Source: Candidatus Krumholzibacteriia bacterium (GTDB taxonomy: Bacteria > Krumholzibacteriota > Krumholzibacteriia > Krumholzibacteriales > Krumholzibacteriaceae). From it: DNA of 64,000 nt. Positions 28,940 to 56,650 of this stretch are shown piece after piece. Location: NCBI GenBank assembly GCA_963836185.1, contig CAWIIQ010000002.1:128001-192000 (forward strand). The letters run 5' to 3'. The notes below the pieces were generated by a model. The model was not told where the DNA came from. It did not search any database and worked only from the letters and a program-made list of their open reading frames with translations. The stretch's first letter is position 1; the number at the start of each line of letters is the position of its first letter. The translations under genes were made by a program, and so were the position numbers.

Positions 28940-30040
28940 ATGAAGACATGTTCGAAGTGCATACTTCCCGAAACATACCCGGGAATCAGATTTGACGAGG
29001 CCGGAGTGTGCGATCAGTGCCTTTCGCACAGGCCGCGCGCATCGAGAGGGGAAGAGAAGTTCCTCGAGATCATCGATTCTTACAGGGATGAGAGCAGAAA
29101 GTACGACTGCATCGTGGCATATAGCGGCGGCAGGGACAGTTCATATCTTCTCTGGTACGCCACGCACCGTCTCGGCCTCCGTGTGCTCGCGTGCTTCGTA
29201 GATAACGGATACGTCCCGGAGCAGACGCTGGCGAACATAAAGAACGCTACAGAGACGCTCGGTATCGACCTGGTCATCAAGAAGCACGAATACGTGAGCA
29301 AATGCGTCCGGCACACGCTGAAGTCATGGATCCGGAGACCCGATCCCGGAATGATCGGCCTTCTGTGCGCGGGATGCAATTTCGCCCTGAGATACTATCT
29401 TCTCGAGATGGCGAAGGAGAATCAGGTCCCGCTGGTGATCTTCGGGCTTGGCGAACCAGAGCCCCGGACGACATTTGCCGAGAGACTTCTGATGAATGAT
29501 CCGCGCAGGAAGATGAGCAGATCCTCCCTGGGTATCGGGTTTGCCTCGCAGATCGCCTCCAATCCGGCCTACCTGACCAATCCGAAGGTCCTCTCGATCT
29601 ATATGAAGGAATATATTTTCAGATGGGCGCCGTCGATCAGAAAGATCATGACGAGGAAGGTCGCTTATCCAGAGATGAGAGTGCTCGAACCGTTCTACTA
29701 CATCGACTGGAACGAGGAGGAGATCGTCTCGGTGATCCAGAACGAGCTTAACTGGGAAAAATGCACATACAGCGGATCGAGCTGGCGGACTGACTGCGAG
29801 ATCGCGACCTTGAAGAACTACCTGTACAAGCAGACACTCGGCTTCTCAAAGCTCGAAGAGCTGCTGAGCAACATGATCAGGTACGATATGACGACGAGGG
29901 ATGAGGCGGCCGAAAGGGTCGAGAAGGAAAGCTATATCTCCGAAGATTTTATCCGCGAGTTCATCGATGGGATGGATCTGGACTACAACGTGTTCCAGTC
30001 GTCCCTCGACATGCGCAACGGCAACCGAACCGCCAGTTAA
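28940..30040 (+). CDS. PP-loop ATP pyrophosphatase, N-acetyl-sugar amidotransferase-like (WbuX/PseA-like)
   Basis: 'CSKCILPETYPGIRFDEAGVCDQC', 'YDCIVAYSGGRDSS', further CxxC and 'DC' motifs. Confidence 0.8.
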   Translation: MKTCSKCILPETYPGIRFDEAGVCDQCLSHRPRASRGEEKFLEIIDSYRDESRKYDCIVAYSGGRDSSYLLWYATHRLGLRVLACFVDNGYVPEQTLANIKNATETLGIDLVIKKHEYVSKCVRHTLKSWIRRPDPGMIGLLCAGCNFALRYYLLEMAKENQVPLVIFGLGEPEPRTTFAERLLMNDPRRKMSRSSLGIGFASQIASNPAYLTNPKVLSIYMKEYIFRWAPSIRKIMTRKVAYPEMRVLEPFYYIDWNEEEIVSVIQNELNWEKCTYSGSSWRTDCEIATLKNYLYKQTLGFSKLEELLSNMIRYDMTTRDEAAERVEKESYISEDFIREFIDGMDLDYNVFQSSLDMRNGNRTAS

Positions 30041-31530
30041 CCCGGTATCTTGAAGTGTCTTCTCTCCGATTTTTTCAAAAGTATGAAGACGTTGAGGATG
30101 ATATATACCGCCGACGTCGCAACTCCCAGAACGACGATCCTCTTGTAGTCCGGGGTGAGGTAATTACGTATAAGAAGCCAGCTGACAAGGTGTATGGCTC
30201 CGCCCAGGGCGATACACCCGAGGACTACCCTGGCGTATTTCGCGAACGGGAACTCGATGACCCTGTTCGCGTAAACGGGGATGATGAAGATATGCGTGAC
30301 AAGTATCGGCAGTGTGGTCCCGAGGGCTACGCCGACGATCCCGTATTTACGGATCAGGATCACGCTGAGGAGGATGTTGGCGAAAGCCTCGCCCAGCATC
30401 AGTAGCGCGTAGAACTTGTGCTTTGAGATGCCGAACAGCATCGATATCGGAGCGATCTGGATCGTTCCGAAGATAAGGCCCACGGTCAGGATCGCGAGCA
30501 CGTGGTACGAATCGAGGTATTCAGGCCCCATCCACCTCAGTATGAAAGCCTTCCCGAATATAAGGATCGATCCTCCGATAAACACCGACATGATTGCGTT
30601 GAGTTTTACCGTGACGATATATTTTTCCCTGATCTGCCCGAAATCACCTTTCCCCTCGAGGCTGCTGAAGACAGGTTTCATCAAAGCGATGGCATTTGTG
30701 ACGAGCATAAGATAGTAAGCCGCCACACGGCTGCCGATGTTGAAGTGTGTCACGAAAGTCAGCCCGAGGAACGCCGTGATGATGAACGCGGCGATCTGGA
30801 ACCTGAACTGTTTGGCGATATTAGCGAGGAAGCTGAAGAAACTGTATCCCAGGAGCATCCGCGCGACCGTTTTTGTCGCCATCATCGGCTGGACCCTTGT
30901 ATCGGGATACTTCCATTTCATGTAGGCGATAGTCAGTGCGTACTGCATGAGGTCCACACAGAGGGTGATCACGGCCAGCGAGATTATTCCGTATCCACGG
31001 CCGAGGAAATAGACTATCAAAGCCGTCCGGATGAGGAGCTTGATGATACCGATGATGTATACGATGTCGTAACGGAGATGAGCGTAAAGAAATCCGTAGA
31101 CACTCCTGATCGGGAAGGAGAGGGCCATGTCGAAGCCGACGAGAAGGATCACAGTCCGGAAGATATCCACATCTTTCGGATCATCCATGAACATGGGGCT
31201 GACAAGCGCGATTACGCCTGACGCGATCAACGCGAGGACCCCGATGAGCAGAAAGATGATCAGAGAGGTATTGAAGACCTTGTCGCGTTCCTCGTGGTCT
31301 TCCTTGCCAAGGGCTCTCGCGATGAACCTCTCGTTCGCTGTCGATATGCCCAGCTCGAAGAATCCGTAATATCCTACCAGGGTCCCGACGAGGATCCACA
31401 ATCCATACCACCGGTCTCCGATTGAGTTGATCACGAATGGTATCATGAAGAAAGCGACGGCGATGTTCAGGACAGGATTCAATACCCTGAAGAAAGAACC
31501 GCGGATGATGGTGCTGGCCAGTCTGGACAC
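30037..31530 (-). CDS. Wzx-type polysaccharide flippase
   Basis: 12-14 TMs; 'YGLWILVGTLVGYYGFFELGI', 'NILLSVILIRKYGIVGVALGT'. Confidence 0.88.
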   Translation of the reverse strand: MSRLASTIIRGSFFRVLNPVLNIAVAFFMIPFVINSIGDRWYGLWILVGTLVGYYGFFELGISTANERFIARALGKEDHEERDKVFNTSLIIFLLIGVLALIASGVIALVSPMFMDDPKDVDIFRTVILLVGFDMALSFPIRSVYGFLYAHLRYDIVYIIGIIKLLIRTALIVYFLGRGYGIISLAVITLCVDLMQYALTIAYMKWKYPDTRVQPMMATKTVARMLLGYSFFSFLANIAKQFRFQIAAFIITAFLGLTFVTHFNIGSRVAAYYLMLVTNAIALMKPVFSSLEGKGDFGQIREKYIVTVKLNAIMSVFIGGSILIFGKAFILRWMGPEYLDSYHVLAILTVGLIFGTIQIAPISMLFGISKHKFYALLMLGEAFANILLSVILIRKYGIVGVALGTTLPILVTHIFIIPVYANRVIEFPFAKYARVVLGCIALGGAIHLVSWLLIRNYLTPDYKRIVVLGVATSAVYIILNVFILLKKSERRHFKIPG

Positions 31531-34012: not shown

Positions 34013-35893
34013 TTATTCCTGGTCTGTGCCGTATGCGTCACGATTCTTCTCCGCCCACTCCAGCATCCCCTTCCGCGGCCACACGATGATGTAATGGACA
34101 GGCTTGTACTTGCCTTCCATGATGAGCAATGTCCGTTGCGGCGAGTTGGCAGCCGCCAGCCTAAGGTCCTGTTCGCTCGTTCCGATCGGATATACCCTTC
34201 CGCCGTTCTGCTCGGGTATCTGCCTGAGGTGAGCCAGCCCGGGGCTGAGCTCCTCGAGCAGCGGATCGTAGAACCAGCTTCCCCCGATCATTCCCTTTAT
34301 CCGTGGATAGCGTTTCAGGAGATCGGCGATATTGAGGTAGCAGCGGATCCATCCTTCCTTGCTGAAGTTCTTTCTCAGGTACCTCATGTCGAGGTGGATA
34401 CTGTAGAAGGGCTTCAATCCCTTCATCTGCCTGACGGTATAGCTCAGTCCATCGATGAACTGCCCCACCCCGCCCGTGAACAGGAACTTGCTTCCGATCC
34501 CCGATTCTTCCACGAGGAACCCGACGGGGACCAGTCTAAGGCTGCAGACGGCCAGGTCCTTGCAGAACCGGTCTTTCCTGTAGTCGTAAAACTCATCCTC
34601 CATCAGGCCGAAATCTTCGATGATCCTCTCGAACCATTCGCCGTACAGCTTGTTGATCTTCTCCGGAAGACCCATGTTTTCCAGGATGGGGATCGAGTCC
34701 CTGATAAAATGCGCCATCGCCGTCTTCTGATACAGGGCGATGCCCCTGATCCCGCAGGATGCTTCAATATCATCAAACGCCGCCACAAGTTTCGGGCTGG
34801 TGTTCCGGTAGAAGTGTCGCCGCCTGTACGATCTCACTATCCCGGAGTATCGCTCGATCGGGTATTTCCGGAGGACATCCGGGGTGATCCGCAGGAGTTC
34901 CCCTTCGAGGGTTCCGATCGCCTCTTCGGCCCTGGCAGCGATGCCCGCCATCTCCGGAGTCGTCTTCCTGTATTTGTCCGCCCACGCTATCAGATCTTTC
35001 CTGTTCCACAGCATCATGTGGCCGGTCGGTCTGTACTTTCCCTCTTCGTACAATCTTTTTCTCGTCGGAGACTTCAACGTCGAGAGCCTTATGTCCCTCG
35101 CGCTGGAACCGGTCTTGAAGAATCGCGCGCGGCGCTTCTCGGGGCGTTCCCTGAGATAGGCCAGTCTCGGGCTGATCCTGCTGATCTCCGGATCATAGAA
35201 CCAGCTGACGGCGAATAACCCCTTGATCCGCGGATTGGCCTTCAGCATCTCGGCGACCCTGACAAAACAACGGTCACGTCCATCTGAGTTGAATTTGTCC
35301 AGATACCGCATATCCATATGTATGCCGTAGAAGGGGTGGAATCCCCTCGTTCCGATCACTGTTCGGTACATATAGCAGAAGAATTGCTTTATCCCGCCCG
35401 ACAGGAAATGTCTTCTGCTCAGGCCGGCTATCTCTGTCAGTTCACACCCGACCGGGGTCATACGCATGCTGCAGACCCCGAGGTCCTTGCAGAAGAAATC
35501 CTGCTCGTGATCATAGAACTCGTCCGGCTGTTTCGAGAAATCATCCACGATCCTCTCGAACCATTCGTAATAAAGCCCGGTGATATCGGCGGAGAAACTC
35601 GTAGAGGGAAGCCTGTCGATCGTCCTCTTGATAAAGGAAGCGAGGGCCAGCTTGTGATAGAGGGTGATGCCGGGCTGGCCGTATTCGGCCCTGATGCTCT
35701 CAAAGGCCGCCGTCAGCCTGAAGGGGAAATCCCTGTACAGGTACAGTTCGGGGAGCGACTCGATCTCATCTATATACATCTCGATGGGGAATTTCGTGAG
35801 AAAGTTCTCATCGAGCCTTTCGAGGCCCTCTTTAAACGAATCTATCCGGCTGTCGACAAGGGCTTCAGTCAGCATCAAAGGCTCCAGACGCAA
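34013..35893 (-). CDS. Hypothetical protein built from two tandem homologous ~300-aa domains (possibly GNAT-like acyltransferase)
   Basis: Repeated 'EWFERIxxDF...DEFYD...FCKDLxVCS', 'PFYxIHxDMRYL', 'PRIKG....SWFYDP...SPxLAxLRxxPE', 'EGKYxP' in both halves. Confidence 0.7.
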   Translation of the reverse strand: MRLEPLMLTEALVDSRIDSFKEGLERLDENFLTKFPIEMYIDEIESLPELYLYRDFPFRLTAAFESIRAEYGQPGITLYHKLALASFIKRTIDRLPSTSFSADITGLYYEWFERIVDDFSKQPDEFYDHEQDFFCKDLGVCSMRMTPVGCELTEIAGLSRRHFLSGGIKQFFCYMYRTVIGTRGFHPFYGIHMDMRYLDKFNSDGRDRCFVRVAEMLKANPRIKGLFAVSWFYDPEISRISPRLAYLRERPEKRRARFFKTGSSARDIRLSTLKSPTRKRLYEEGKYRPTGHMMLWNRKDLIAWADKYRKTTPEMAGIAARAEEAIGTLEGELLRITPDVLRKYPIERYSGIVRSYRRRHFYRNTSPKLVAAFDDIEASCGIRGIALYQKTAMAHFIRDSIPILENMGLPEKINKLYGEWFERIIEDFGLMEDEFYDYRKDRFCKDLAVCSLRLVPVGFLVEESGIGSKFLFTGGVGQFIDGLSYTVRQMKGLKPFYSIHLDMRYLRKNFSKEGWIRCYLNIADLLKRYPRIKGMIGGSWFYDPLLEELSPGLAHLRQIPEQNGGRVYPIGTSEQDLRLAAANSPQRTLLIMEGKYKPVHYIIVWPRKGMLEWAEKNRDAYGTDQE

Positions 35894-38038: not shown

Positions 38039-39166
38039 ATGAATGACAGCCGATTACCGATAAGAGTGATGTTTGTCGTGCCGTGCTTCGGGTACGGGGG
38101 CCTCGAGCAGGTCATCCTGAACATCGTGAGGGACCTGGACCGCTCGAGGTTTACGCCTTCGTTCTGCTCCCTTGTCGTTCCTGAGCCTGGCCTGTTCGAA
38201 GATCTTAAGGCACTCGACCTCGGATGCCACATCATCGAGAAGGGCGACGGCATAAAGCCTTCCCTGCCGCTGAAGCTCGGCAGGCTTTTCAGGGCCGAGC
38301 GGATAGACATCATAAATGCCCATGATATCGGCGCTACGATATATGCGGCGCCCGCTGCCCGGCTCGCCCGGACCCCCGCGTTCATCCACACCGATCACAG
38401 CCAGATCCTGGCGAAAACGAAATACCCAGGCGTCTACAGATGGATATGGAAGAACCTCGTCGATTACTCGATAACAGTCTCGGAGGATCTTGAGCGGCAC
38501 CTGGTCTCGAGGTACGGGGTGGATTCCGGCCTGGTACGCACAATACCGAACGGGATCGATACCGGCCGGTTCGCCGGCGGCGGAGGCACCGGCGAACTGC
38601 GGAAAGAACTCGGGATAAGCGAGGGGGACAGGGTGATAGGGACGATAGGGAGGTTGATGAGGCAGAAAGGGATGCCTTACCTGCTCGAGGCCTTCAGAAT
38701 ACTGCGGCAGGGAGCTTCCGATACGACACTGGTCATCGTGGGAGACGGCGAGGAGAGGGCCGGCCTCGAGCAGCGCGCCCGGGAACTCGGCATAAGCGAC
38801 AAGGTCGTCTTCGCGGGGATCCGCAGGGATATTCCCGATCTTCTCGCGATGTTCGACATCTTCACCCTCGCGTCGTTATGGGAGGGGCAGCCGATCACGA
38901 TCATGGAGGCGATGGCCGCGGGAAGGCCGATCGTCGCGACAGACGCGGGAGGCAGCGCGGAGGTCCTCGACGACGGAAGGTGCGGCATCATCGTGCCGGT
39001 CAAGGATCCCGGGGCCCTGGCCGGATCGATCCGGTCTCTCCTCGACGATCCGGAACTCGCGGGCAGGTTCGGCGAGCGGGCCCGGGAGCGCGCGGAGGCC
39101 GAGCTCAGCTCTGCCGCGATGACGAGGAAGTATGAAGATGTCTTCGGATCTGTCCACGGCAGGTGA
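38039..39166 (+). CDS. GT4-family glycosyltransferase
   Basis: 'GGLEQV', 'IPNGID', 'IGRLMRQKG', 'SLWEGQPITIMEAMAAG'. Confidence 0.92.
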   Translation: MNDSRLPIRVMFVVPCFGYGGLEQVILNIVRDLDRSRFTPSFCSLVVPEPGLFEDLKALDLGCHIIEKGDGIKPSLPLKLGRLFRAERIDIINAHDIGATIYAAPAARLARTPAFIHTDHSQILAKTKYPGVYRWIWKNLVDYSITVSEDLERHLVSRYGVDSGLVRTIPNGIDTGRFAGGGGTGELRKELGISEGDRVIGTIGRLMRQKGMPYLLEAFRILRQGASDTTLVIVGDGEERAGLEQRARELGISDKVVFAGIRRDIPDLLAMFDIFTLASLWEGQPITIMEAMAAGRPIVATDAGGSAEVLDDGRCGIIVPVKDPGALAGSIRSLLDDPELAGRFGERARERAEAELSSAAMTRKYEDVFGSVHGR

Positions 39167-39255: not shown

Positions 39256-40323
39256 ATGGATGATATTCACATCAAGCTGGGCTCGTTGCCCGTCCGGATA
39301 AGTTCAGACGACGGGGACTTTCTCGAGTATACCCTCAGCCATTTTGCGCCCGTGACGATCGATCCGCCTGCACGGTGCGCCGTCGAGGCGCGCTTCACCC
39401 GGGGCCCCTGCGAAGAGGAGCAGACCGCGCTTGCCCGGTACGACCGGATCGGCAGGGGGATCTACACCGATGGAAAGACTGTGATCTGGAACACGGTCCC
39501 GTATTTCCCCGCGATGACGATGAGCTTCCTGTTCGAGGGAGAGACGCTGGCCGTCAGGGCGTATCAGAATACTTCCGGATCGATGAAAAGCACGGTGAAG
39601 AATCTCGTCAGAGCGATCTACGGCCAGTCGGAGAGCAGGAGCGTCTTCTATTTCGAGCTGCTCTACTATCTCGTCTACTACCCGGTGTTCCGGATGCTTT
39701 CCGACAGGGGGATCCATGCTCTTCACGGCGGCGGGATAGAGGCGCGCGAGAAGCGCATCGTGGTGGTGGGGGCACAGGGAACAGGCAAGTCGACGCTCAT
39801 AGCCAACCTGCTCGCCGGGTCCGGTTCGCGTTTCCTCTCCGACAACATCATCCTTTTCGACAGCAGGAGGGTGTATTCATGTCATGAGCCGGTACGCCTC
39901 GATACAGGCATGCTGGATAATGATCCCCTGCTGAGGGAGATGGTGTCGAAGATCGACCTGGATGTGCCTCTAGGGCGGACGGCTGGAAATGTCCGCCGGG
40001 AATCGTATATCGAGTCGATGGAGCCGGATATATTCATCATACCGAGGATAACCCGGTCGGCGACATCGCTCGAACCGTGCACGAAAGAGGATGTAGTCCG
40101 AAAGGCATTGTATTTCAACAGTCTTGCCGACGAGGTAAGATCCTTCGATATATTCGCCTCGGTCCTCGGGCAGGTCTTTCCCCCGAAGCTGCCTCCCTGC
40201 AGCGGGGCAGAGGCCCTCAGCGCGCTTCTTGAGGGCAGGGAGTTATACGAACTCGGCATCGGATACGGTGAGGATCCCGGGGTGACCGCGCGTGCCTTCA
40301 TCGAGAGTGTGACCAATGAGTGA
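39256..40323 (+). CDS. HPr-kinase-related P-loop kinase
   Basis: 'LHGGGI', Walker A 'GAQGTGKST', then 'FLSDN' matching the HprK acidic motif. Confidence 0.7.
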   Translation: MDDIHIKLGSLPVRISSDDGDFLEYTLSHFAPVTIDPPARCAVEARFTRGPCEEEQTALARYDRIGRGIYTDGKTVIWNTVPYFPAMTMSFLFEGETLAVRAYQNTSGSMKSTVKNLVRAIYGQSESRSVFYFELLYYLVYYPVFRMLSDRGIHALHGGGIEAREKRIVVVGAQGTGKSTLIANLLAGSGSRFLSDNIILFDSRRVYSCHEPVRLDTGMLDNDPLLREMVSKIDLDVPLGRTAGNVRRESYIESMEPDIFIIPRITRSATSLEPCTKEDVVRKALYFNSLADEVRSFDIFASVLGQVFPPKLPPCSGAEALSALLEGRELYELGIGYGEDPGVTARAFIESVTNE

Positions 40324-41746
40324 TGACAAGATAAAGCTGCTCTTTGACGAGTCCTTCGATCCCGACGAGAGGCTGATCGCCTCGCTGAAGGATATAGCCG
40401 GTATCGACGACGTGCATATGGTAGTCGGCATGGTCGACCTGCACCTGAAGAAGAATACGGAGAATCCCTCGAGCGTCGCTATCGCGACGCGCGAGAGGCT
40501 CATCCCCAAGCTTTCAAGCGTGGCCCAGAACTGCGGGATGGCGATCGCGGCGACAAATCTCACGACGGGCGATGCCGGGGTGGAGAGGCTGGAGGAGCTC
40601 TTCGGCAGGATGAGGGCCGAGGATGACACGCTTATGCGGCACCCGGGGATGAGCGTCGAGGATATGAGAAGGGCCGCGTGCCTCGGAGCGCCCTGGGCGG
40701 CGGAAAAGGCGGGGCTCCCCGTTGATTTCCCGGAAAATATCGAGTTCGGGGGAGCCGTCGGCAGGACCGATCTGCTTTCGTGGAAGGAGCTCGGGAAACT
40801 GGTCCCGCGTTATTCCCTCGATCGCGGAAGGTACGGGTTCGGGGTGATTCCGGCCGGCAACCATTTCCTGGAGATACAGGCGGTGGACGAAGTGATCGAC
40901 GGGGAAGAATGCGAAAGGCATGGTATCCGCGAGAACGGGATCATGATAATGATCCATTCCGATGGAGGCCTCATATCAGACGATATAGGAAACCTGTACG
41001 GGAACCGGACGACCGCGAAGGGATACATCAGGGCTCTTTATAACGTAAGGAAGACGGCCCTGCATCTTCGCGACTGGCGGGGGGTGGAGAACTGGAAGGA
41101 AAAGAAGGAGTATTACTTCGGCGCTGGCAGGTATATCCAGATCTCCCCAGGGACGGATGAGGGGAAGCGGTTCCTCAAGGCGAAGGACCTTTCGATGAAT
41201 GCCGGGTATGCTTCGAGAGTGACTACGATGGGAAGGGTGAAGAGGCTCATGGGAGAGGTCTTCCCCGAGGGGCCGTTCGATATGCGACTGCTCTGCGATT
41301 TTTCACATAATTCTATTTTCCGCGAGACGATCGACGGCAGCCCCGTGTGGGTGCACCGTCACAACGCGTGCAGAGTCGTAGAAGGACAGCTCGTATTTCT
41401 GCCCGGATACAGTAATACATCTTCGTATATCTGCGCAGGTTCTTCCGGCGCCCGCGATTTCCTCAACACTATGGATCACGGGGCCGGGAAGACGATAGAC
41501 CGGTTGAAGAAGAAGGGACTCGTGCGTGAGCTCGGAAACGGACGCGTCACGAGGAGCTACAACAATGAGTCACCGGAACCGAAACAGGTCCCTCATGTGT
41601 CCGACGAAGGCATAGACGCGGTTATCGAATCACTGGGCCGTAACGATATCGTGAGGCCTGTCGCGAGGCTGAGGCCCATGGCCGGTTACCGCTATCTCTG
41701 GAAGGGCCGGCTGGCACGGGCACGAGAGAAGATAACGGCCGGCTAG
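40316..41746 (+). CDS. Divergent RtcB-family (GTP-dependent ligase-like) protein
   Basis: RtcB motifs in the expected order: 'VDLH', 'NCGM' (C73), 'GNHFLEIQ' (H183), 'IHSD' (H214), 'SHN' (H331), 'WVHRHNA', 'LPG', 'DHGAG' (H388), 'ARLRP'. Confidence 0.85.
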   Translation: MSDDKIKLLFDESFDPDERLIASLKDIAGIDDVHMVVGMVDLHLKKNTENPSSVAIATRERLIPKLSSVAQNCGMAIAATNLTTGDAGVERLEELFGRMRAEDDTLMRHPGMSVEDMRRAACLGAPWAAEKAGLPVDFPENIEFGGAVGRTDLLSWKELGKLVPRYSLDRGRYGFGVIPAGNHFLEIQAVDEVIDGEECERHGIRENGIMIMIHSDGGLISDDIGNLYGNRTTAKGYIRALYNVRKTALHLRDWRGVENWKEKKEYYFGAGRYIQISPGTDEGKRFLKAKDLSMNAGYASRVTTMGRVKRLMGEVFPEGPFDMRLLCDFSHNSIFRETIDGSPVWVHRHNACRVVEGQLVFLPGYSNTSSYICAGSSGARDFLNTMDHGAGKTIDRLKKKGLVRELGNGRVTRSYNNESPEPKQVPHVSDEGIDAVIESLGRNDIVRPVARLRPMAGYRYLWKGRLARAREKITAG

Positions 41747-41758
41747 GGCGCTGTAAGG

Positions 41759-42397
41759 GTGTTGTTGCGGACTATGAACCAGACTGGCGGCGGCGAATAT
41801 AAACTGCTCTTTCTCCTGCCCGTTTTCCCTGACACAGGCAGGGTCCTCCTGCTCGACATCGGATCAGACAGCCTGGAGCGGCGGCTCTCCGCAATGGGGA
41901 TAGAATGCCGCACGGGAAGCGTTGATGACGTGTCGCGGGATGACGCCGGCGCAGGCAGGTTCGATTTGATCGTCGCAGGCAGGATGCCGTCGGGCCGCCG
42001 GGCCATGGATATGTTCAAGCGATCGGTCGGCGGCCTTCTTACAGGTACCGGCTGGCTGGTCGTCGTCTCGCCGAACAGGTTCGGATACTCGAGGCTGGCG
42101 GGCAGAGGCGGGGGCGGCGCTGGCAGCTCGCTCGGCGCGATGCGGGGAATGGTTAGAAAGATGGGATTTACCGACATCCACATATATTCTCCGGTCCCGG
42201 ATACGGCCAATCCATCGGCCTTCATCTCGCTTTACGGATCGAATTCGCTCGAGTTCCTTCTCGGGCAGTTTCCCGATTTTATCTCGGCCCGGTCGGGCCC
42301 CGTAAGGGGTATCCTGTCGTTATTGATACGGACCGGCATATTCAGGTACGTCCAGAATTACTACGCGATAGTCGCCGGCGGGCGGGAACAGGTGTAA
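41759..42397 (+). CDS. Class I SAM-methyltransferase-like protein (degenerate motif I)
   Basis: 'LLLDIGS', 'FDLIV', 'LLTGTGWLVVVSPNRFGY', 'MGFTDI'. The start may be the ATG at 41774. Confidence 0.55.
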   Translation: MLLRTMNQTGGGEYKLLFLLPVFPDTGRVLLLDIGSDSLERRLSAMGIECRTGSVDDVSRDDAGAGRFDLIVAGRMPSGRRAMDMFKRSVGGLLTGTGWLVVVSPNRFGYSRLAGRGGGGAGSSLGAMRGMVRKMGFTDIHIYSPVPDTANPSAFISLYGSNSLEFLLGQFPDFISARSGPVRGILSLLIRTGIFRYVQNYYAIVAGGREQV

Positions 42398-42411: not shown

Positions 42412-43416
42412 ATGTTGTTCTATCTGAAAAATATGATCGCCGAACGCCTCGGTATCCGCGACACCGATGAAGCTGTGGTGACGAGGGTAGAGGCAGGCAC
42501 AAAAGCGGTCCTCTTCTTCTTCCTCGAGAGGGGAAGCATCGTGCCGTCTATCGTAGTCAAGGCGGCAAGCGATCCCCGTTTCAATGATGAGCTGCGCGGT
42601 GAAAGTGCGAACCTAGGATACCTCAGGGATATACTTTCAGATGGCCTGGGCGGCGGCGTTCCCGCAGTCGAGGCCGACGGGGAATGGATGGGGCTGTACT
42701 ACTACGCCCAGCGTTATTTTCCCGGTGTCATGCTCGACGAGACGATCGACGACGTCGAGCCTTCCGGGGAGGGGACTGGTCCCGGGAGGGGATTACGGGC
42801 CGCCTGGCGGTGGCTTGATGATTTCCAGGAAGCGACGGCGTCGGAGCCGGTCATGCTCGGCCGGTCCGGTCTCGATATCTTGTTCGGCTCGTACAGGGAA
42901 GCCTTCGCCCCGGAAGGGGACGAAGCGGCATATCTCGGCAGTCTCGAGAAGAGGCTGGCGGACCGCCATGAAGGGGAGACAGGCATGTCCGCCTGTCACG
43001 GGGACTTCTTTCCCGGGAATATCATCCTGTCCGGCGACCGGGTGACCGTGATCGACTGGCGGTTCCTGCGCAGGTCGTACAACCGGTTCTTCGATTTCTT
43101 CACCCTGCTCCTGACGTTTTACGCGTCCGAGGGTGGAGTGACCGACTATGATGATCACGAGGGGCATTTCAGGAGACTTTTCTTCGAGAAGCACTGGACC
43201 AACGATCTGTTCTCCGGTCTCTGCCGCGAGTTCCTGGAACGAAACGGGACCGATGCCGGACTGTTCGGACTGATGCTTGAACTGACCCTTCTCGAGTGGT
43301 CCGTCAGGGAGTTCAGATCCAGCGGAACGACAGGGGAGATGGACATCATCTGGCGCACGAGATTCCTGTACCACATGAATAACAGGGATCGCTTCATCCT
43401 CGGGAGCGTGGAGTAG
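42412..43416 (+). CDS. Aminoglycoside-phosphotransferase/choline-kinase-like small-molecule kinase
   Basis: 'IVVK', Brenner motif 'CHGDFFPGNII', 'VIDW'. Confidence 0.8.
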   Translation: MLFYLKNMIAERLGIRDTDEAVVTRVEAGTKAVLFFFLERGSIVPSIVVKAASDPRFNDELRGESANLGYLRDILSDGLGGGVPAVEADGEWMGLYYYAQRYFPGVMLDETIDDVEPSGEGTGPGRGLRAAWRWLDDFQEATASEPVMLGRSGLDILFGSYREAFAPEGDEAAYLGSLEKRLADRHEGETGMSACHGDFFPGNIILSGDRVTVIDWRFLRRSYNRFFDFFTLLLTFYASEGGVTDYDDHEGHFRRLFFEKHWTNDLFSGLCREFLERNGTDAGLFGLMLELTLLEWSVREFRSSGTTGEMDIIWRTRFLYHMNNRDRFILGSVE

Positions 43417-43419
43417 GCG

Positions 43420-45537
43420 ATGTCGAATGCGCGGAAAAAGATACGTATTTTCTCACCCCGGGAGATTGCTTTCAGGCTTTCCGAGAAGGTGCGTTTCCGC
43501 CGGGAGAGACGAGGGAAGAGGCCGCAGGTCGAGATCACGCGGGAATACCACGGCCTGAAGGACAGGTTTATACCCGTGGGGCTGTTTCCGTTCACGGGAG
43601 AGAAGGAATCGGTATGCGGCATGTGGCGCGAGGTTTTCCCCGGATCGGCAGAGGGAGAGATCGCTCTCGCTGACGGTATTCTGGAGAACCGTATTCCCGT
43701 CTTTTCGGAAAAGGTCGACTATGGCGACAGGGTGGACTGGCACCTTGATCCGGTCTCCGGGACGAGGTCGCCCGTGGTCTTCTACCGCGACATAGATACC
43801 TTCGATACATCGGTGGCGGGAGATCCCAAGCGTATCTGGGAACTCAACAGGCACGATTTCTTCATCCATCTCGGGAAGGCATACTGGATAAACGGCGATG
43901 TCAGGTATTTTGATAAATGGCGCGAATTGATCGTGTCGTGGGTGGAGGAGAACCCGTACCACATGGGGATCAACTGGGAGAGCAGCCTCGAGATGGCGTT
44001 CAGGTCGATCAACTGGATATGGTCGTCGTACTTCTTCGCGGACCGGCTGGAGGCCGACAGAGAGCTCCAGGAGCTGATTTTCGAGACTTTGTACCTGCAG
44101 GCGGACCATATCAGCAATCACCTCTCGTATTTTTTCAGTCCCAACACCCATCTGACAGGGGAGGCGCTGGGGCTCCTCTACATCGGCAGGGTGTATCCCG
44201 CGATGAAGCCCGCTGCCGCCTGGGTCTCGACGGCGGTCGATATCCTCGAAACGGAACTCGAAAAGCATATCCTCGAGGATGGCGGATATTTCGAGATGGC
44301 GACCTACTATCACAGGTACACGATCGATTTCTACCTGCATTTCTTTCTTCTTTCGGGCGGGGTCGACGGCCCGGGCCTGAAGAGGAGAGAGTATTTGAAG
44401 AAGATGGTCCGTCACCTCGTCCTTCTCTCGGAACCTGACGGGACTATTCCCCTGCTGGGCGATTCAGACGGCGGCCGGCTGCTGATGCTCGATGACCTGA
44501 AACGAAATGTCAGTGGCGCATGCTGCAGCGCGGCTGTGATACTGGGAGACGGTGAGCTCAAGTCGCTCTGCGGCTCCAGGTTCAGCGAGGAGACGATGTG
44601 GCTCCTCGGAACGGGGAGCAGGGAGAGGTTCGATGGACTGGCTGCCAGGCCGCCGGTACATTTCCATTCGATCAATGACAGTACGGGCCTGTACTGCTTC
44701 AGGAGCGGGATGACGGAGGATGACTCGTACACCCTGATCGACTGCGGTCCGCACGGCTGGAAGGGATGTGGGCACGCGCATGCCGACCTGCTCAGTTTCA
44801 TATGGTACAGCGGGGGGGAGATGGTACTGACCGATCCCGGCACCTTCACATATACAGGATCGCGGAGTATCCGCGATCAGTCCCGCAGCAGCTTGAGCCA
44901 CAACACCATCTCGGTCAACGGGCGCTCGCAGTCCGTTCCGGGAGAGCCGTTCAGGTGGAAGAGCGTCGCTGCCCCGAAATATGCCCGTGTCAGGGTAGAC
45001 AGGGAGTGCGGGAGGTTCGAGGGAGAGCACGACGCCTGGGAGGAGTTCGGCTGCGGCCACAGGAGATCGCTCTACTTCCTCGGCTCCTCCCTGACCGTGG
45101 TGATCGACGAGCTCAGCGTCTCCGGGCCGCTCGATTCGATCCTGTATAACCTGCAGTTCGGCGACGGGAAACTGAGCGAACTCAGCGGCGGCATTTTCAG
45201 GTTCGATGGAAAAGGGAGCGGCGGGAGCCGGTACGTAAGGATAATCGCCGGAGAAAAGGTCAGGGTCGACATCCGCGAGGGAGCGTTCTATCCTGACTAC
45301 GGGAAGAGGGTAGCGGCGCCGAGGCTCGAAGTGACAGCAGACCGCATCACCGAAGACCTGATGATCGTCACGCTGCTGAGCCCTGATGAGGAACTGGCCG
45401 GCAGTTTCCGGTGGAAGGATGGCCGCCGGATGGAAGGGTCCTCGCGGGCGGGCAGCTACATGCTGGAGTGCCGCGACAGAGAGATAATAGCTTTCAGGGA
45501 CGGAGAACAGGTTCTGCCTGGAAAGGTGCAGGCGTGA
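43420..45537 (+). CDS. Heparinase II/III-like protein
   Basis: 'DPKRIWELNRH', 'GINWESSLEMAFR', 'SPNTHLTGEA', 'GDSDGG', 'GHAHADLLS', 'DPGTFTY', 'HNT'. Confidence 0.9.
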   Translation: MSNARKKIRIFSPREIAFRLSEKVRFRRERRGKRPQVEITREYHGLKDRFIPVGLFPFTGEKESVCGMWREVFPGSAEGEIALADGILENRIPVFSEKVDYGDRVDWHLDPVSGTRSPVVFYRDIDTFDTSVAGDPKRIWELNRHDFFIHLGKAYWINGDVRYFDKWRELIVSWVEENPYHMGINWESSLEMAFRSINWIWSSYFFADRLEADRELQELIFETLYLQADHISNHLSYFFSPNTHLTGEALGLLYIGRVYPAMKPAAAWVSTAVDILETELEKHILEDGGYFEMATYYHRYTIDFYLHFFLLSGGVDGPGLKRREYLKKMVRHLVLLSEPDGTIPLLGDSDGGRLLMLDDLKRNVSGACCSAAVILGDGELKSLCGSRFSEETMWLLGTGSRERFDGLAARPPVHFHSINDSTGLYCFRSGMTEDDSYTLIDCGPHGWKGCGHAHADLLSFIWYSGGEMVLTDPGTFTYTGSRSIRDQSRSSLSHNTISVNGRSQSVPGEPFRWKSVAAPKYARVRVDRECGRFEGEHDAWEEFGCGHRRSLYFLGSSLTVVIDELSVSGPLDSILYNLQFGDGKLSELSGGIFRFDGKGSGGSRYVRIIAGEKVRVDIREGAFYPDYGKRVAAPRLEVTADRITEDLMIVTLLSPDEELAGSFRWKDGRRMEGSSRAGSYMLECRDREIIAFRDGEQVLPGKVQA

Positions 45538-46696: not shown

Positions 46697-46745
46697 TGTC
46701 TGATATTTATTGCGGAGAAACAGGAAATCGGTCCGGGGGAGAACC

Positions 46746-48610
46746 ATGTGCGGCATATTCGGGATATATAGCCTGGACGGGCGCGGCGTCGATGAGCGGG
46801 AATCGGCGCGCATGCTCGATTTGCTGTCTCACAGGGGGCCCGACGGGAAAGGGACCTTCTGCGATGATCGAGTATTCCTCGGGCACGCGAGACTCAGCAT
46901 CATAGATGTCGAGGGAGGCAGCCAGCCGATCTTCAGCGAGGACGGGAACATCGCCATAGTCGGGAACGGCGAGATCTACAATCACGAGGAACTGCGGCGC
47001 GGCCTGATCAGCAGGGGGCACACTTTCAAGACGCGTTCCGATATCGAAGTGCTCGTTCACCTCTACGAAGAGGAGAAGGAGGGTTTTCTCGACAAGCTCA
47101 ACGGGATGTTCGCTTTCGCCATCTACGACAGGAGGGCGGGCGAGCTCTTCATCGCGCGTGACAGGATAGGGATCAAGCCGCTTTACTACTATTATGACGG
47201 CGGCAGACTGATCTTTTCATCCGAGATGAAGGCGATCATCAAGTCGGGACTTATCCCTCTCGAGGTAAACGATACCGTCGTATACCAGTTTCTCACGCTT
47301 CATTTTTCCGTGCCTCCTGATACCCTGATCAAGGGGATCCAGTCGCTGAGACCGGGTCATTACATCTTCGCCGGACGCGGGGAGCCGCAGCAGAAGCAGT
47401 ACTGGGATATCAGCCCCGACCCGGACGAACCGCCCCTGCCTCCCGCGGAGTCACTCCGGGAAGTCGAATCGCTTCTGATCGATTCGGTCGAGAAGAGACT
47501 GATGAGCGACGTGCCCCTCGGGCTTTATCTCAGCGGCGGGATAGACTCGAGCCTCATCGCCGCGCTGATGCACAATATGGTAGGCGACGGGATAAAGACC
47601 TTCTCTATCGGTTACCGCGAAAAGGAATACTCTGAGCTGCCCTGGGCGAAAAAGGTCAGCGAGATGATCTCCTCCGACCATACGGAAGTCATCGTCTCTC
47701 CTGACGAGATAAAGCACAATATCGAGGATGTCATATGGTACCGCGAGACACCGATCTCCGAGCCCGCTGATATCCCGATATTCATGCTCAGCCGGGCCGC
47801 GGCGAAGAAGGTCAAGGTCGTCCTTACCGGGGAGGGGGGGACGAGGTATTCGCAGGATACCACAAGTATGTCTTCGAGGACTGGGCGCGCAAAGCGGCGC
47901 TACTGAGGAATCCAGCCGCACGGGCGATGCTGATGAATCCCATGGCGCAGAAGATGTTTCCGCAGAGGATCAATACAGCCCTCGATCTCTTTTCGGAGAA
48001 GGACAGGTTTCGAAGGTACTACAGGTGGTTCAGCTATTTCAGGGACGAGGAGCTGCGCGGCATGGTCAAGCCCGGGAGGGCCGGATTCGTGTCGGGAAGG
48101 AACTTCTACAGGGAGATAGCTGGGGACAGGAGATTCAGGAACGGCCTCGACGAGATGCAGTATCTCGATGTCAAGGTATGGCTGCCCGATAACCTCCTTC
48201 TCAGGGGAGACAGGATGTCGATGGCTTCCGGCCTGGAGGCTCGTGTGCCCTTTCTCGATCACAGGCTCGTCGAGCTGAGCTATCGCCTCGGCATGTCGAT
48301 GAAGGTGAGGAAAAATTCAGGCAAGTACGTCATAAAGAAGATCGCCGAGAAATATCTTGATAAGGAAATAATCTACCGGAAAAAGGTTGGTTTCGCCGTG
48401 CCGGTCAGCGACTGGCTGCGGACCGACCTGAGGGATTTTCTGCAGGATCATCTGACGCGGAGCAATTCGTTCAGCGGAGGGATCTTCAGGAAAGAGAGTA
48501 TTGAGACGATGATCGACGACCATGCGTCAGGCAGGATGGACAACCACAAGAAGCTGTGGATCCTTCTTAACCTTGAGCTTTGGTACGACCAGTTCATCGG
48601 CGGCGCGTAA
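46746..48610 (+). pseudogene. asnB: Asparagine synthase (glutamine-hydrolysing)-family amidotransferase, -1 frameshift in the G7 run at 47834-47840
   Basis: MCGI N-terminus, 'HRGPD', 'RLSIID', 'NGEIYN', 'LSGGIDSS'. Adding one G restores 'LTGEGGDEVFAGY' and joins the downstream 'DRMSMASGLEARVPFLD...KVGF' frame. Confidence 0.9.
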
Positions 48611-54135: not shown

Positions 54136-55512
54136 TCAGATGTATACCATGGCAAGGAACTTGTAGAGCACTATGCTGAAGCCGATTATGGCTATGATGA
54201 AGAGGATGTCTTTCTGGGTGAAGCCGCGGTTCTGCCTGACCGGAGGTTCACAGAACCTCAACAGAAGAGTTACAAGGGCGAAGATGATATACAGGACAGG
54301 GGTGTAGGCCTGGGAGAGGAAGACGGCGCTCGAGAGGAATCCGATCAGCGAGAGCTGGAGGATCTTCGCGTACTTGACGTAGATCTCACTGCCGTTTTTT
54401 TCTACTGCCCTGAGTCCGGCATAACTCGAGTATATAAGCGCGAGCCATACGCCGTATCCGAGGAAGCCCAGTTCAGACATGCACTGGATGAAAGCGCTGT
54501 GCGCGGCGCGTATGTGGTAAGCCTGGAAGTTAGCCGGCCCGACGCCGAACAACGGGTGCCCTTTGAGCATGACCAGCCCGGATATCCATGCATTCACCCT
54601 GCCGCTCGCGGAGGCCTCGTAAGGAGAGACATTGCCCATCCTGCTCGGCGCTAGTACCAGCGCGACTCCGATAAAGAGAACGCCCGTGACGATCCCCTTG
54701 AGCAGTCCCCACCTCTTGACGGCAAAGACCGAGAGGATGACGATCAGCGCGACATATCCTCCTCTTGAGTTCGTGTAGTAGATAGCGGCAAGGAGCAGGA
54801 GCGAGACGACCAGCAGCAGCATCTTCCGCTGCCTGCTGATCGAGGAGTCGAACAGGTTTATCAGTATGAACGGGATGAAGGCGTTGATCGCCAGGGCGTA
54901 GTCGTTCGGGTCGCCGAACAGGCCTACCCAGTGTATCCTGCCCAGGATCGGTGTGATTCCCGCCAGGTCGTACCCCCTGAAGTGCATGATCAGACCGTTT
55001 ATCGCGAGGGCGATGGTACAGCCGACGAGTGTCCAGCAGACCATGCGGAACTGGTCAAAGTTTGTAGTGAGGTTCACCATGATCATAAACAGCAGGAATA
55101 CGGTCAGCACTACATAGACTCCCTGCCAGTCGGGCGCTACGCCGAGGTTCACGATATGGCTGATGAATACGAGCCCGAGAAACAGCATCATAAGGATGCT
55201 GTTCCGCGAAGAGGCTATACTCATGGGCTCCTTGCGGAACACCTTGTGCACGATGAATGTGACGATGATAAGAACGGCGAGAAAGAGCATCACGCGCAGT
55301 TTCTGGAGAGCGGGGAAGATCAGCTGAAACTGAGCATAGATCATGATGATGTAGAGGATCAGCCCGGAGAAAGGCCGGAAAAACACCATCGCGCCGAGGG
55401 CCGCCGCTCCCATCAATCCAGCCGCGGCGGGAACAGAAGCCATCGCGACCAGCGAAGCGACTGCCGCCAGGACGACGAACAGGATGATTACTAATGGAGC
55501 GCTCTTTTTCAT
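54136..55512 (-). CDS. O-antigen ligase / Wzy-like polymerase family protein
   Basis: 'GLFGDPNDYA', 'TNSRGG', 'SASGRVNAW', 'PLFGVGPANF', 'AHSAFIQCMSELG'. Confidence 0.88.
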   Translation of the reverse strand: MKKSAPLVIILFVVLAAVASLVAMASVPAAAGLMGAAALGAMVFFRPFSGLILYIIMIYAQFQLIFPALQKLRVMLFLAVLIIVTFIVHKVFRKEPMSIASSRNSILMMLFLGLVFISHIVNLGVAPDWQGVYVVLTVFLLFMIMVNLTTNFDQFRMVCWTLVGCTIALAINGLIMHFRGYDLAGITPILGRIHWVGLFGDPNDYALAINAFIPFILINLFDSSISRQRKMLLLVVSLLLLAAIYYTNSRGGYVALIVILSVFAVKRWGLLKGIVTGVLFIGVALVLAPSRMGNVSPYEASASGRVNAWISGLVMLKGHPLFGVGPANFQAYHIRAAHSAFIQCMSELGFLGYGVWLALIYSSYAGLRAVEKNGSEIYVKYAKILQLSLIGFLSSAVFLSQAYTPVLYIIFALVTLLLRFCEPPVRQNRGFTQKDILFIIAIIGFSIVLYKFLAMVYI

Positions 55513-55525
55513 ATCGTTATTGCCG

Positions 55526-56650
55526 TCACTTCTTCCACCTCGCGTCGGCTCCACCTGTCATGTGAGTATACAGCGCGGCGACCGCGGCGGCATTCATTGA
55601 TATGAATACGGAGATGAAGTTGACCACCCTGTTGCTTTTCAGGCGGGCCGACTTCAGCGCGGCGGTGCCGATCGCGTACAGCGCCGCCTGCAGGATGAAC
55701 AGCATCCGGTACGGCGCTGACTCGATCATAGCCGACGATACCAGAGCCAGGATCATGCAGTAAGGGACGAGAAGCCTGAAGAGCTTGTGGGACACAGTCT
55801 GGAAGAATATCCTGTTCCGGTGAGGGTCGAAGAGCCAGTGGTTGCGCTCGAAAAGCTGGAAGTTGCCTGCCAGCGTCCTGACTTTTCTCCTGAATTCCAG
55901 CCCGATCTCCAGTGAAGCGGTGTCGTACGCTACGGCATCGCTGTCGAAGGTGACGCGGTACCCTTTCCTGAAAGCTCTCAGCGGGATCTCGATGTCGTCG
56001 AGGATCGTGTCGTCCGGTATTTCCTCGATCAACTCGCGGCGTATGGCGTAGATGGCGCCTGTGACTCCGAGGGTCGAGTCGACGTCGCTCTCCGATCTCC
56101 TCAGGATCTTCTCGTAGTGCCAGTATATCCCGACGCTTTTTTCCGTGATGTCGGTCGGCGACATGAATACGAGCTCGCCGCTCACCGCTCCGATCTCCGG
56201 ATCGTCGAAATTCCTGGCCAGCTTGCGCAGCGCGTCCGGTTCGTACATCTGCCTCGTGTCGGAGAATACGACGAGGCCGCTCTCGCACCCTTTTACGGCG
56301 ACGTTTATCTGGTGCGGTTTCCCGCGGTTGACGTCGTCTCTTATAAGGGTGATATCGTCGTATTCTTCGAGGATCGCGGTGGTCCCGTCGGTCGATCCGT
56401 CCGAGACGATGCGGACCGAGAAGAGACCGGCCGGATAATCGAGTTTCCGGCAGTTGTCGATCTTTTCCCTGATGATCCGTTCCTCGTTGTGGGCGATGAT
56501 TATCATCGTGATCGAGGGAAGCTCTTCAGCGCCGCCATGACGGGCGGGACGCCTCCCCTTCAGCCTTCCCGCCATGTAGATGATGGCAGGATAGAGGATA
56601 TACGTGTAGACGATAAACAGCACCGAAAACCAGAATGCGAACCGGATCAC
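55526..56650 (-). CDS. GT2-family membrane glycosyltransferase
   Basis: 'AHNEE', 'SDGSTDGT', 'FSD', 'GVTGAIYAIRR', 'DD', 'RRKVRT'; N- and C-terminal TMs. Confidence 0.9.
   Translation of the reverse strand: MIRFAFWFSVLFIVYTYILYPAIIYMAGRLKGRRPARHGGAEELPSITMIIIAHNEERIIREKIDNCRKLDYPAGLFSVRIVSDGSTDGTTAILEEYDDITLIRDDVNRGKPHQINVAVKGCESGLVVFSDTRQMYEPDALRKLARNFDDPEIGAVSGELVFMSPTDITEKSVGIYWHYEKILRRSESDVDSTLGVTGAIYAIRRELIEEIPDDTILDDIEIPLRAFRKGYRVTFDSDAVAYDTASLEIGLEFRRKVRTLAGNFQLFERNHWLFDPHRNRIFFQTVSHKLFRLLVPYCMILALVSSAMIESAPYRMLFILQAALYAIGTAALKSARLKSNRVVNFISVFISMNAAAVAALYTHMTGGADARWKK

Follow-up and report, generated by a model that had tools for sequence, protein, structure and literature searches.

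A divergent RtcB-fold protein in a polysaccharide gene cluster of Candidatus Krumholzibacteriia and its possible role in glycan decoration

In the literature covered here RtcB acts only on nucleic acids, and the question raised by the present locus is what a protein of this fold does among genes for polysaccharide synthesis. The locus lies in a stretch of 64,000 nucleotides of a Candidatus Krumholzibacteriia bacterium (GenBank assembly GCA_963836185.1, contig CAWIIQ010000002.1, positions 128,001 to 192,000 of the forward strand), hereafter called the window, and the RtcB-like protein is encoded at 40316..41746. A first-pass annotation made from the sequence letters had listed the kept and altered motifs of this protein and proposed that guanosine monophosphate (GMP) chemistry was retained on a non-RNA substrate. 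We found that the gene belongs to a distinct clade of RtcB, in which the catalytic core is conserved and the residues around the second metal and the RNA strand are replaced. On balance we favour the reading that the enzyme attaches a nucleoside monophosphate (NMP), probably GMP, to a phosphorylated small building block and thereby activates it for glycan decoration.

Conserved and replaced residues of the RtcB-like protein

The gene and the sites considered below are as follows, with the counterparts numbered as in Pyrococcus horikoshii RtcB (PhoRtcB).

40316..41746, + strand: divergent RtcB-fold protein of the "DxHxK / HRHN" type, 476 aa, the subject gene (uninterrupted open reading frame (ORF), Pfam PF01139, model and family tallies).
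40436..40474, + strand: motif D41-L-H43-L-K45-K-N-T-E49-N-P-S52-S53, in which K45, E49 and S52 are new invariants (117/117 homologs with residues there).
40523..40534, + strand: A70-Q-N-C73, where the metal-2 ligand Asp95 is replaced and the bridging Cys is kept (non-Asp in 117/118 homologs).
40859..40873, + strand: N182-H183-F184-L-E186, the acceptor-hydroxyl Asn, metal-2 His and guanine-pocket Phe and Glu, all kept (alignment; roles from PMC9745838, PMC8051266 and PMC3973293).
40955..40969, + strand: H214-S-D216-G-G218, with the metal-1 His kept and Arg238 of the RNA 5′-strand site lost as G218 (Arg in 0/120 homologs).
41306..41365, + strand: H331-N332 ... H347-R-H349-N350, with the metal-1 His kept and Lys351 replaced by His (HRHN in 120/120).
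41477..41488, + strand: H388-G-A-G, the nucleophilic His (His404 of PhoRtcB), kept (119/119 homologs with a residue there).

The protein matched the Pfam RtcB family over residues 26-456 with 147.2 bits (cut-off 27) and nine PDB sequences of solved RtcBs (best E 1e-18). Its AlphaFold model, built from a 32-row alignment, had a pLDDT of 91.2, and Foldseek matched this model to the GMP/Mn structure of PhoRtcB, 4dwq (E 2.4e-28, TM 0.67). In the phmmer alignment with PhoRtcB, which runs from residue 97 onward, C73 corresponded to C98, N182-H183 to N202-H203, E186 to E206, H214 to H234, G218 to R238, H331-N332 to H329-N330, H349 to K351 and H388 to H404, confirming the Cys/His core named by the first-pass annotation. 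The equivalences A70=D95 and R459=K480 were counted from just outside the aligned stretch, three residues before and four after it, and multiple alignments with canonical RtcBs agree with both; the reported loss of the metal-binding Asp holds. The motifs quoted earlier (AQNCG, GVIPAGNH, HSDGG, HRHNA, HGAG and PMAGYRY) are all present in the ORF. The C-terminal Lys region does read PMAGYRY, but Lys480 is conservatively replaced by Arg459 and not lost. In addition, D41 corresponds to D65 of PhoRtcB and begins an N-terminal motif that had been missed, D-x-H-x-K-x3-E-x-P-S-S against the canonical D-x-H-x-G-x-G-x-P-I-G. A DNA pattern for HN-x14-HRHN matched the window once and none of 100 shuffled sequences.

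The published roles of these positions are as follows. The ligands of metal 1 are C98, H234 and H329 and those of metal 2 are D95, C98 and H203, and the guanine is contacted by E206 and K480 (PMC9745838). The 5′-OH strand is held by R238, R190, Q194 and H242, of which Arg238 contacts two phosphates, and the 5′-OH itself is held by N202 (PMC8051266). The R263A mutant of a fish RtcB, equivalent to R238, was inactive, and D94A of the Thermococcus RtcB is described as catalytically inactive (PMC12135372). In human RTCB the gamma-phosphate site is bound jointly by D119 (=D95), N354 and K375 (=K351), metal B is no longer present once the enzyme is activated, and D119A retains weak guanylylation and loses ligation (PMC10944509). 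In PhoRtcB, D65A, D95A, N202A, H203A, F204A, E206A, H404A and K480A were each inactive alone, and Archease rescued the guanylylation of RNA 3′-phosphate by D95A, but not ligation (PMC3973293). The window protein keeps the residues at six of these positions (D65, N202, H203, F204, E206 and H404).

Conservation was determined in two sets of homologs. In the protein search 7998 candidates were scored, of which 359 were homologs at E<=1e-10, and the residue counts use the best 120 as ranked by likeness to the query, which is included. Of the others, 17 were 47-81% and 102 were 32-38% identical to it, so that the 120 consist of a near clade of 18 proteins and 102 far ones. The wider set came from a profile search against 50%-identity representatives, whose best 150 were taken. 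After removal of sequences shorter than 380 aa, 129 (P0001, five from the earlier set and new ones) were aligned together with 67 canonical RtcBs of 440-560 aa as controls. Of the 129, 14 carried K351-G and R238 and were excluded as canonical-like, leaving 115 divergent representatives; this motif-based split is partly circular, and the trees described below give independent support for it. A scan of genome contigs gave 80 matches, of which four (L003, L004, L005 and L015) were family members and the rest were canonical RtcBs that were reused as controls.

Within the 120 homologs, N182, H183, H214, H331 and N332 were invariant, and wherever the residue was covered so were C73 (118/118), H388 (119/119) and D41, K45, E49 and S52 (117/117 each); the catalytic core is thus invariant across proteins of 32-81% overall identity. 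The position of Asp95 was Ser in 98, Ala in 19, Asp in one (P0007) and a gap in two. That of Arg238 was Gly in 80, Glu in 34, Asp in 6 and Arg in none, and HRKG read HRHN in all 120, so that the Lys351 position is always His. The canonical controls kept D95, K351, R408, R412 and K480 in 67/67 and R238 in 66/67, and had Gly in the K45 column in 66/67. Among the 115 divergent representatives, Asp95 was kept in 3 and Arg238 in 9, and K45 was found in 100; H183 was kept in 115, H214 in 114, H331 in 113, H388 in 108 and C73 in 103, with the last four and H183 jointly present in 97. An annotated RtcB2-prfH protein kept DIGCG, HSGSRG, HRKGAT and the canonical control residues. The substitutions are therefore neither unique to the window sequence, being common to more than 100 homologs, nor common among canonical RtcBs, being absent from 66-67 of the 67 controls and from the RtcB2-prfH protein. 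These patterns indicate that the family has likely kept the residues needed to form a His-NMP, rebuilt the metal-2 or leaving-group subsite and lost the main contact to RNA.

The positions of D95 and K351 changed together in the family, which points to the leaving-group (gamma-phosphate) site. The suggestion that Asp216 of the HSD motif compensates for Asp95 did not hold as a general rule. Asp216 is a trait of the near clade, found in 18/18 near and 8/102 far proteins, and 81 of the 115 divergent representatives have neither Asp, so that it was rejected as a general substitute. His349 appears to be the better candidate in cis, because it replaces K351, which shares the gamma-phosphate site with D95, in 120/120 homologs; E49, or a partner acting in trans, are also candidates. 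Of the earlier proposal that GMP chemistry is retained, the part concerning guanylyl transfer is plausible from the residues present, and sealing is less certain because D95A of PhoRtcB is dead for ligation (PMC3973293).

A sub-branch of the family, comprising loci L003, L004, L005 and L015 and proteins P0154, P0157, P0171, P0191, P0205 and P0257, shows the bridging Cys replaced by Asp (N-D-G/C-M) and reads xRHN. Of its four loci, one of which (L003) is shorter than 4 kb, three have a gene resembling a CDP-alcohol phosphotransferase, and no match to the P-loop partner described below was obtained in any of them.

The window gene belongs to a distinct clade of RtcB. A quick-mode IQ-TREE run with 26 divergent and 22 canonical rows, without the E. 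coli-type and RtcB2 sequences, placed the divergent rows on one branch with an SH-aLRT of 100, and with FastTree no canonical row fell within the 115 divergent ones (clade support 0.61). The clade is large: of the 50%-identity representatives in the alignment, 115 of 129 belong to it, and 2056 members are counted in the nearest Atlas cluster. Nei-Gojobori dN/dS of the window gene against three relatives was 0.21-0.23 (dS 1.6-2.1, near saturation), and it ranged from 0.07 to 0.36 over all 12 pairs tested, indicating purifying selection. A separate, canonical RtcB is encoded elsewhere in the genome (513 bits). A search across the phylum at E<=1e-60 found the family gene in 6 of 208 genomes and in none of the 6 of the same genus. 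Named Terrabacter genomes including T. lapilli also carry members, WP_344062606.1 being one Terrabacter homolog. No viral contig matched the family pattern. The best of 116 plasmid records was 26% identical, and the one examined, among 15 listed, was an RtcB2-prfH locus.

Gene neighbourhood, fusions and the kinase-like partner

The neighbouring genes in the window are as follows.

39256..40323, + strand: PEPCK/HprK-fold P-loop protein, 355 aa, a nearly obligate partner (structure match, locus counts, fusions).
38039..39166, + strand: GT4 glycosyltransferase directly upstream of the cassette (library scan).
41759..42397, + strand: small ORF, weakly methyltransferase-like, with an uncertain start codon, which travels with the APH kinase (hhalign probability 33%, without Pfam match).
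42412..43416, + strand: APH/choline-kinase-fold phosphotransferase, an optional partner (Pfam APH, E 4.4e-10).
43420-45537, + strand: heparinase II/III-like protein, downstream (library scan).
45534-46646, + strand: polysaccharide deacetylase, downstream (library scan).
46710..48610, + strand: asparagine-synthase-like amidotransferase, two ORFs split at a G run at about 47833-47840.
30037..31530, - strand: Wzx-type flippase, wider locus (Pfam Polysacc_synt_3).
54136..55554, - strand: Wzy/O-antigen-ligase-like membrane protein, wider locus (Pfam Wzy_C).

The gene of the P-loop partner overlaps the start of the RtcB-like gene by 8 nt. A DNA pattern specific to the family, which fits 110 of the 120 proteins, gave at least 120 metagenome loci, 80 of them with flanks, and 25 long HRHN loci with at least 4 kb on both sides were compared, namely the window, two related genomes and 22 metagenome contigs. 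When we counted the neighbours with profiles built from family loci and this genome, a GT4 or GT2 gene was present within 4 kb in 25/25 of the long loci and in 0/36 canonical loci; the GT4 profile also matched 30 ORFs genome-wide. The P-loop gene was found in 24/25 long loci and lay directly upstream in 25 of the 50 loci with enough upstream DNA, and the APH kinase and the small ORF (or a shorter relative of it) were each found in 18/25. None of these three occurred in the 36 control loci, and this genome has one copy of each. Pfam scans of three selections, with 55, 59 and 29 proteins, found Wzx, Wzy, priming transferases, DegT aminotransferases, dehydratases and amidotransferases near the family gene, with Wzx or Wzy matches in L098, L105, L141, L148, L159, L112, L120, L173, L003, L005 and L015. 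A CDP-alcohol phosphotransferase-like gene stands near the RtcB-like gene in L120, L154, L003, L004 and L005. In these five loci the P-loop gene was not matched, and L120, the sole long locus without the P-loop gene, has its relative of this transferase downstream.

Gene fusions connect RtcB with the P-loop kinase and with Wzx. P0133 and P0200 are fusions of the P-loop kinase with RtcB on different branches, and their clusters hold four full-length and two members, respectively. P0157 is a Wzx-RtcB fusion of 996 aa with two cluster members from two assemblies. Each of the three fusions was found in more than one assembly.

The model of the P-loop partner (pLDDT 91.5) matched PEPCK 1ii2 over 284 residues covering both domains (Z 17.7, rmsd 4.2) and HPr kinase 1ko7 over 126 residues of the P-loop domain (Z 13.1, rmsd 2.5). 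According to this model the partner has the PEPCK/HprK fold, and it is likeliest a small-molecule phosphotransferase. It shares with the superfamily a His before Walker A (GAQGTGKST, for the GxGKST of the superfamily) and an Asp after it, and differs from it in its length of 355 aa, in having D196-N197 for Asp-Asp and in lying below all HprK-related cut-offs. The window partner scored 29.7 and 19.6 bits with the HprK-related kinase A and B models of NCBIfam, below the cut-off of 200. Among 40 family members of the partner, R67, H157, G175, G177 and E211 were found in all, D196 and N197 in 39 and R241 in 38, and 3/40 matched the phosphonate-monophosphate kinase FomB weakly. PEPCK and HprK have Asp-Asp at this site, the second Asp binding Mn in PEPCK and serving as the base in HprK, and the PDB titles include an Asp269Asn mutant of E. 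coli PEPCK in the region of the partner's DN. In L089:9028-10132 (G070), the partner is present as two overlapping ORFs, owing to a frameshift or a sequencing error.

Several further observations were made at these loci. The amidotransferase split in the window is whole in the related loci L089 and L092, and the split is possibly an assembly indel. At L092:12766-14652 a single reading frame contains both the small ORF and the APH kinase, an arrangement that to us recalls the WbdD-type methyltransferase-kinase chain terminator. L112 also has isoprenoid or lipid genes (DXP synthase, an FMN enzyme and radical SAM), as does L173 (UbiA, an FAD oxidoreductase and a PPDK-like gene), so that in some hosts the product may be a glycolipid. 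The window also encodes a 626-aa protein without Pfam or NCBIfam match at 34013-35893 (- strand) in the glycan locus, whose halves resemble a repeated domain. Two related PP-loop proteins with an N-terminal CxxC, at 28940-30040 (+ strand) and 56683-57696 (- strand), flank the locus with Pfam matches that are marginal or below cut-off, and we presume that they may be N-acetyl-sugar amidotransferases. A short ORF with an HTAD motif just 5′ of the canonical RtcB, L001:917-1354 (G000 C1), resembles Archease in this motif. Promoter and terminator scans gave chance level only.

Proposed function and its alternatives

The pathway that we favour would run as follows. The PEPCK/HprK-fold neighbour probably supplies a phosphorylated small building block that is not RNA; GMP from GTP would be loaded onto His388 of the RtcB-like enzyme and passed on to the phosphate of the building block, giving a GDP-activated donor, and the phospho-unit would finally be attached to the lipid-linked glycan repeat as a phosphodiester. 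A non-RNA substrate, as the first-pass annotation had proposed, is favoured by the loss of Arg238 in the alignments, the glycan-cluster context and the fusions. Whether the RtcB-like enzyme activates only, with a separate transferase finishing, or also seals the bond appears about equally likely. The former is favoured by the D95A data and by the loci with CDP-alcohol transferases, and the latter by the retention of N182 and by the absence of such a transferase from most loci. More tentatively, and doubtful in its full form, this clade of RtcB would have left RNA and, together with a mini-PEPCK-fold kinase that is sometimes fused to it, would phosphorylate a small acid or alcohol, activate it as X-pp-G by way of His-GMP and seal it onto the repeats before flipping by Wzx.

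Several points weigh against the pathway that we favour. Loss of Asp95 weakens guanylylation in human RTCB and abolishes ligation in the human, Pyrococcus and Thermococcus enzymes, so that the family enzyme would need a compensation. The position of Lys480, a guanine contact, is Arg in the window protein and His or Asn in 48/120 homologs, and the nucleotide may therefore not be GTP. Both R170 (=R190, 18/18) and, for the most part, R396 (=R412, 15/17) persist in the near clade, which suggests that some contacts to a phosphate backbone remain. The partner has Asn for the second Asp of PEPCK and HprK in 39/40 members, which makes its own activity uncertain. As for the context, the 25 long loci form 24, 19 and 5 groups at 90, 70 and 50% identity, the origin of the glycosyltransferase profiles favoured the family side, and the Wzx and Wzy profiles did not grow past their seeds (one match each) and gave no locus count.

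Among the alternatives, the same pathway may run with other chemistry, using an NDP-sugar or NDP-alcohol as donor via a His-NMP, or forming an acyl-NMP or a P-N bond to an amino sugar. The changed D95 and K351 line the leaving-group site (PMC10944509), and the family loci often encode DegT aminotransferases, deacetylases, formyltransferases and amidotransferases. There is, however, no universal amino-sugar gene, DegT lying within 4 kb in 7/25 loci, the acceptor-hydroxyl contact N182 is kept in 120/120, and the pairing with a kinase points to a phosphate acceptor. We consider this alternative unlikely, yet it survives better than those that follow.

It is also conceivable that the system is directed at a protein, the HprK-like partner phosphorylating a protein or peptide whose phosphate the RtcB-like enzyme caps with GMP or links to a sugar, so as to regulate or anchor the glycan. 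HprK-like kinases phosphorylate lasso-peptide precursors, and 29/40 and 26/40 partner members gave weak matches to the HprK-related kinase A and B models. The partner nevertheless matched the two-domain PEPCK better, with 284 residues covered, than it matched HprK, with 126, and has DN where HprK has DD, and we regard this explanation as improbable. A slightly lower probability is given to a catalytically inactive protein that binds nucleotide and metal as a scaffold or sensor of the glycan assembly complex. D95A abolishes ligation in three RtcBs, and among the 115 divergent representatives Asp replaces the bridging Cys in 6 and the His nucleophile is absent in 7, but a pseudo-enzyme would not need D41, H388, N182 and the metal-1 site, which are invariant in the 120 closest homologs.

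Lower still stands the possibility that the protein remains a nucleic-acid enzyme, an RNA ligase or end-capper with an unusual site hitchhiking in polysaccharide clusters. The whole RtcB fold is present, the near clade retains R170 and R396, and RtcB paralogs differ in capping versus ligation (PMC10630183). Against this, Arg238, Asp95 and Lys351 are jointly lost, the fusions are to a flippase and to a kinase, the glycan context of all 25 long loci is absent from the 36 canonical ones, the genome has a canonical RtcB besides, and the Rfam scan of the window gave zero RNA matches. Finally, a decaying pseudogene, which the frameshift in the nearby amidotransferase gene and the absence of the gene from all 6 same-genus genomes might suggest, is ruled out by the full-length ORF, the substitutions shared by more than 100 homologs and a dN/dS well below 1, in agreement with the first-pass annotation.

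Relation to known systems and implications

The family shares with canonical RtcB (P. horikoshii PH1602, T. thermophilus TTHA1785, E. coli RtcB and human RTCB) the fold (TM 0.67), the metal-1 Cys/His/His, the His nucleophile and the counterparts of Asp65, Asn202, His203, Phe204 and Glu206. It differs in the replacement of Asp95 by Ala or Ser, Arg238 by Gly, Glu or Asp and Lys351-Gly by His-Asn, in the loss of Gln194, and in the addition of the K45/E49/S52 motif and a basic and aromatic helical insert at about 228-270. A hydrophobic-moment scan did not single out this insert, and we do not claim that it binds membranes. Of the guanine contacts, Glu206 and Phe204 are kept (E186 and F184), and Lys480 is R459 and variable in the family. 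The family gene has a glycan cluster and a kinase partner, whereas the canonical gene has an Archease-like neighbour. By its sequence the window protein is a member of the RtcB structural family and is not classed as an RNA ligase, since it fails three defining features, the metal-2 Asp95, Arg238 and Lys351. Its best NCBIfam scores are to the RtcB2-PrfH families, whose fold it shares, but these are far below the cut-offs (103 vs 407 bits for TIGR03073 and 79.5, or about 80, vs 271.8 for NF007153), and no prfH is present among the neighbours of the gene.

The chemistry proposed here resembles that of CofC/FbiD and CofD/FbiA in F420 synthesis, where a phospho-acid and GTP give X-pp-G and X-p is then passed to a hydroxyl; this is an analogy only, and the acceptor there is FO, not a glycan. 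The units that CofC and CofD transfer to a hydroxyl by way of X-pp-G come from phosphoenolpyruvate, phospholactate or phosphoglycerate (PMC8764529).

CofC and CofD belong to enzyme families other than RtcB. Within glycan loci, the sequence of kinase, nucleotide activation and phosphodiester transfer is known from LicA-LicC-LicD and TarD/TagF, and LicA has the APH/choline-kinase fold, as does the optional neighbour here. The Lic and Tar systems use CTP and NTP-transferase or LicD folds, and no member of the NTP-transferase or LicD families was found among the scanned cassette genes. For none of the hosts was a glycan structure found.

Our literature searches found no link between RtcB and glycan synthesis, and the reviews PMC10630183 and PMC13247085, as consulted, contributed nothing on it; a 2016 comparative survey of RNA repair systems lay outside them and may mention the clade. 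New here are the residue-by-residue test with controls, the finding that Asp216 is not general, the joint change of D95 and K351, and the two-domain PEPCK-like fold of the partner. If the favoured pathway is true, a conserved clade with a His-GMP core in Wzx/Wzy loci extends the RtcB fold to phosphoryl chemistry on small molecules and glycans, and an unrecognised class of surface-glycan substituents is predicted. A frequent error of annotation would be corrected as well, many members being named "tRNA-splicing ligase RtcB". Should the more tentative form hold as well, in which the enzyme itself seals the unit onto the repeats, an RNA-ligase fold would for the first time be seen to act as a glycan phosphotransferase, and the annotation "tRNA-splicing ligase" would be mistaken in thousands of cases.

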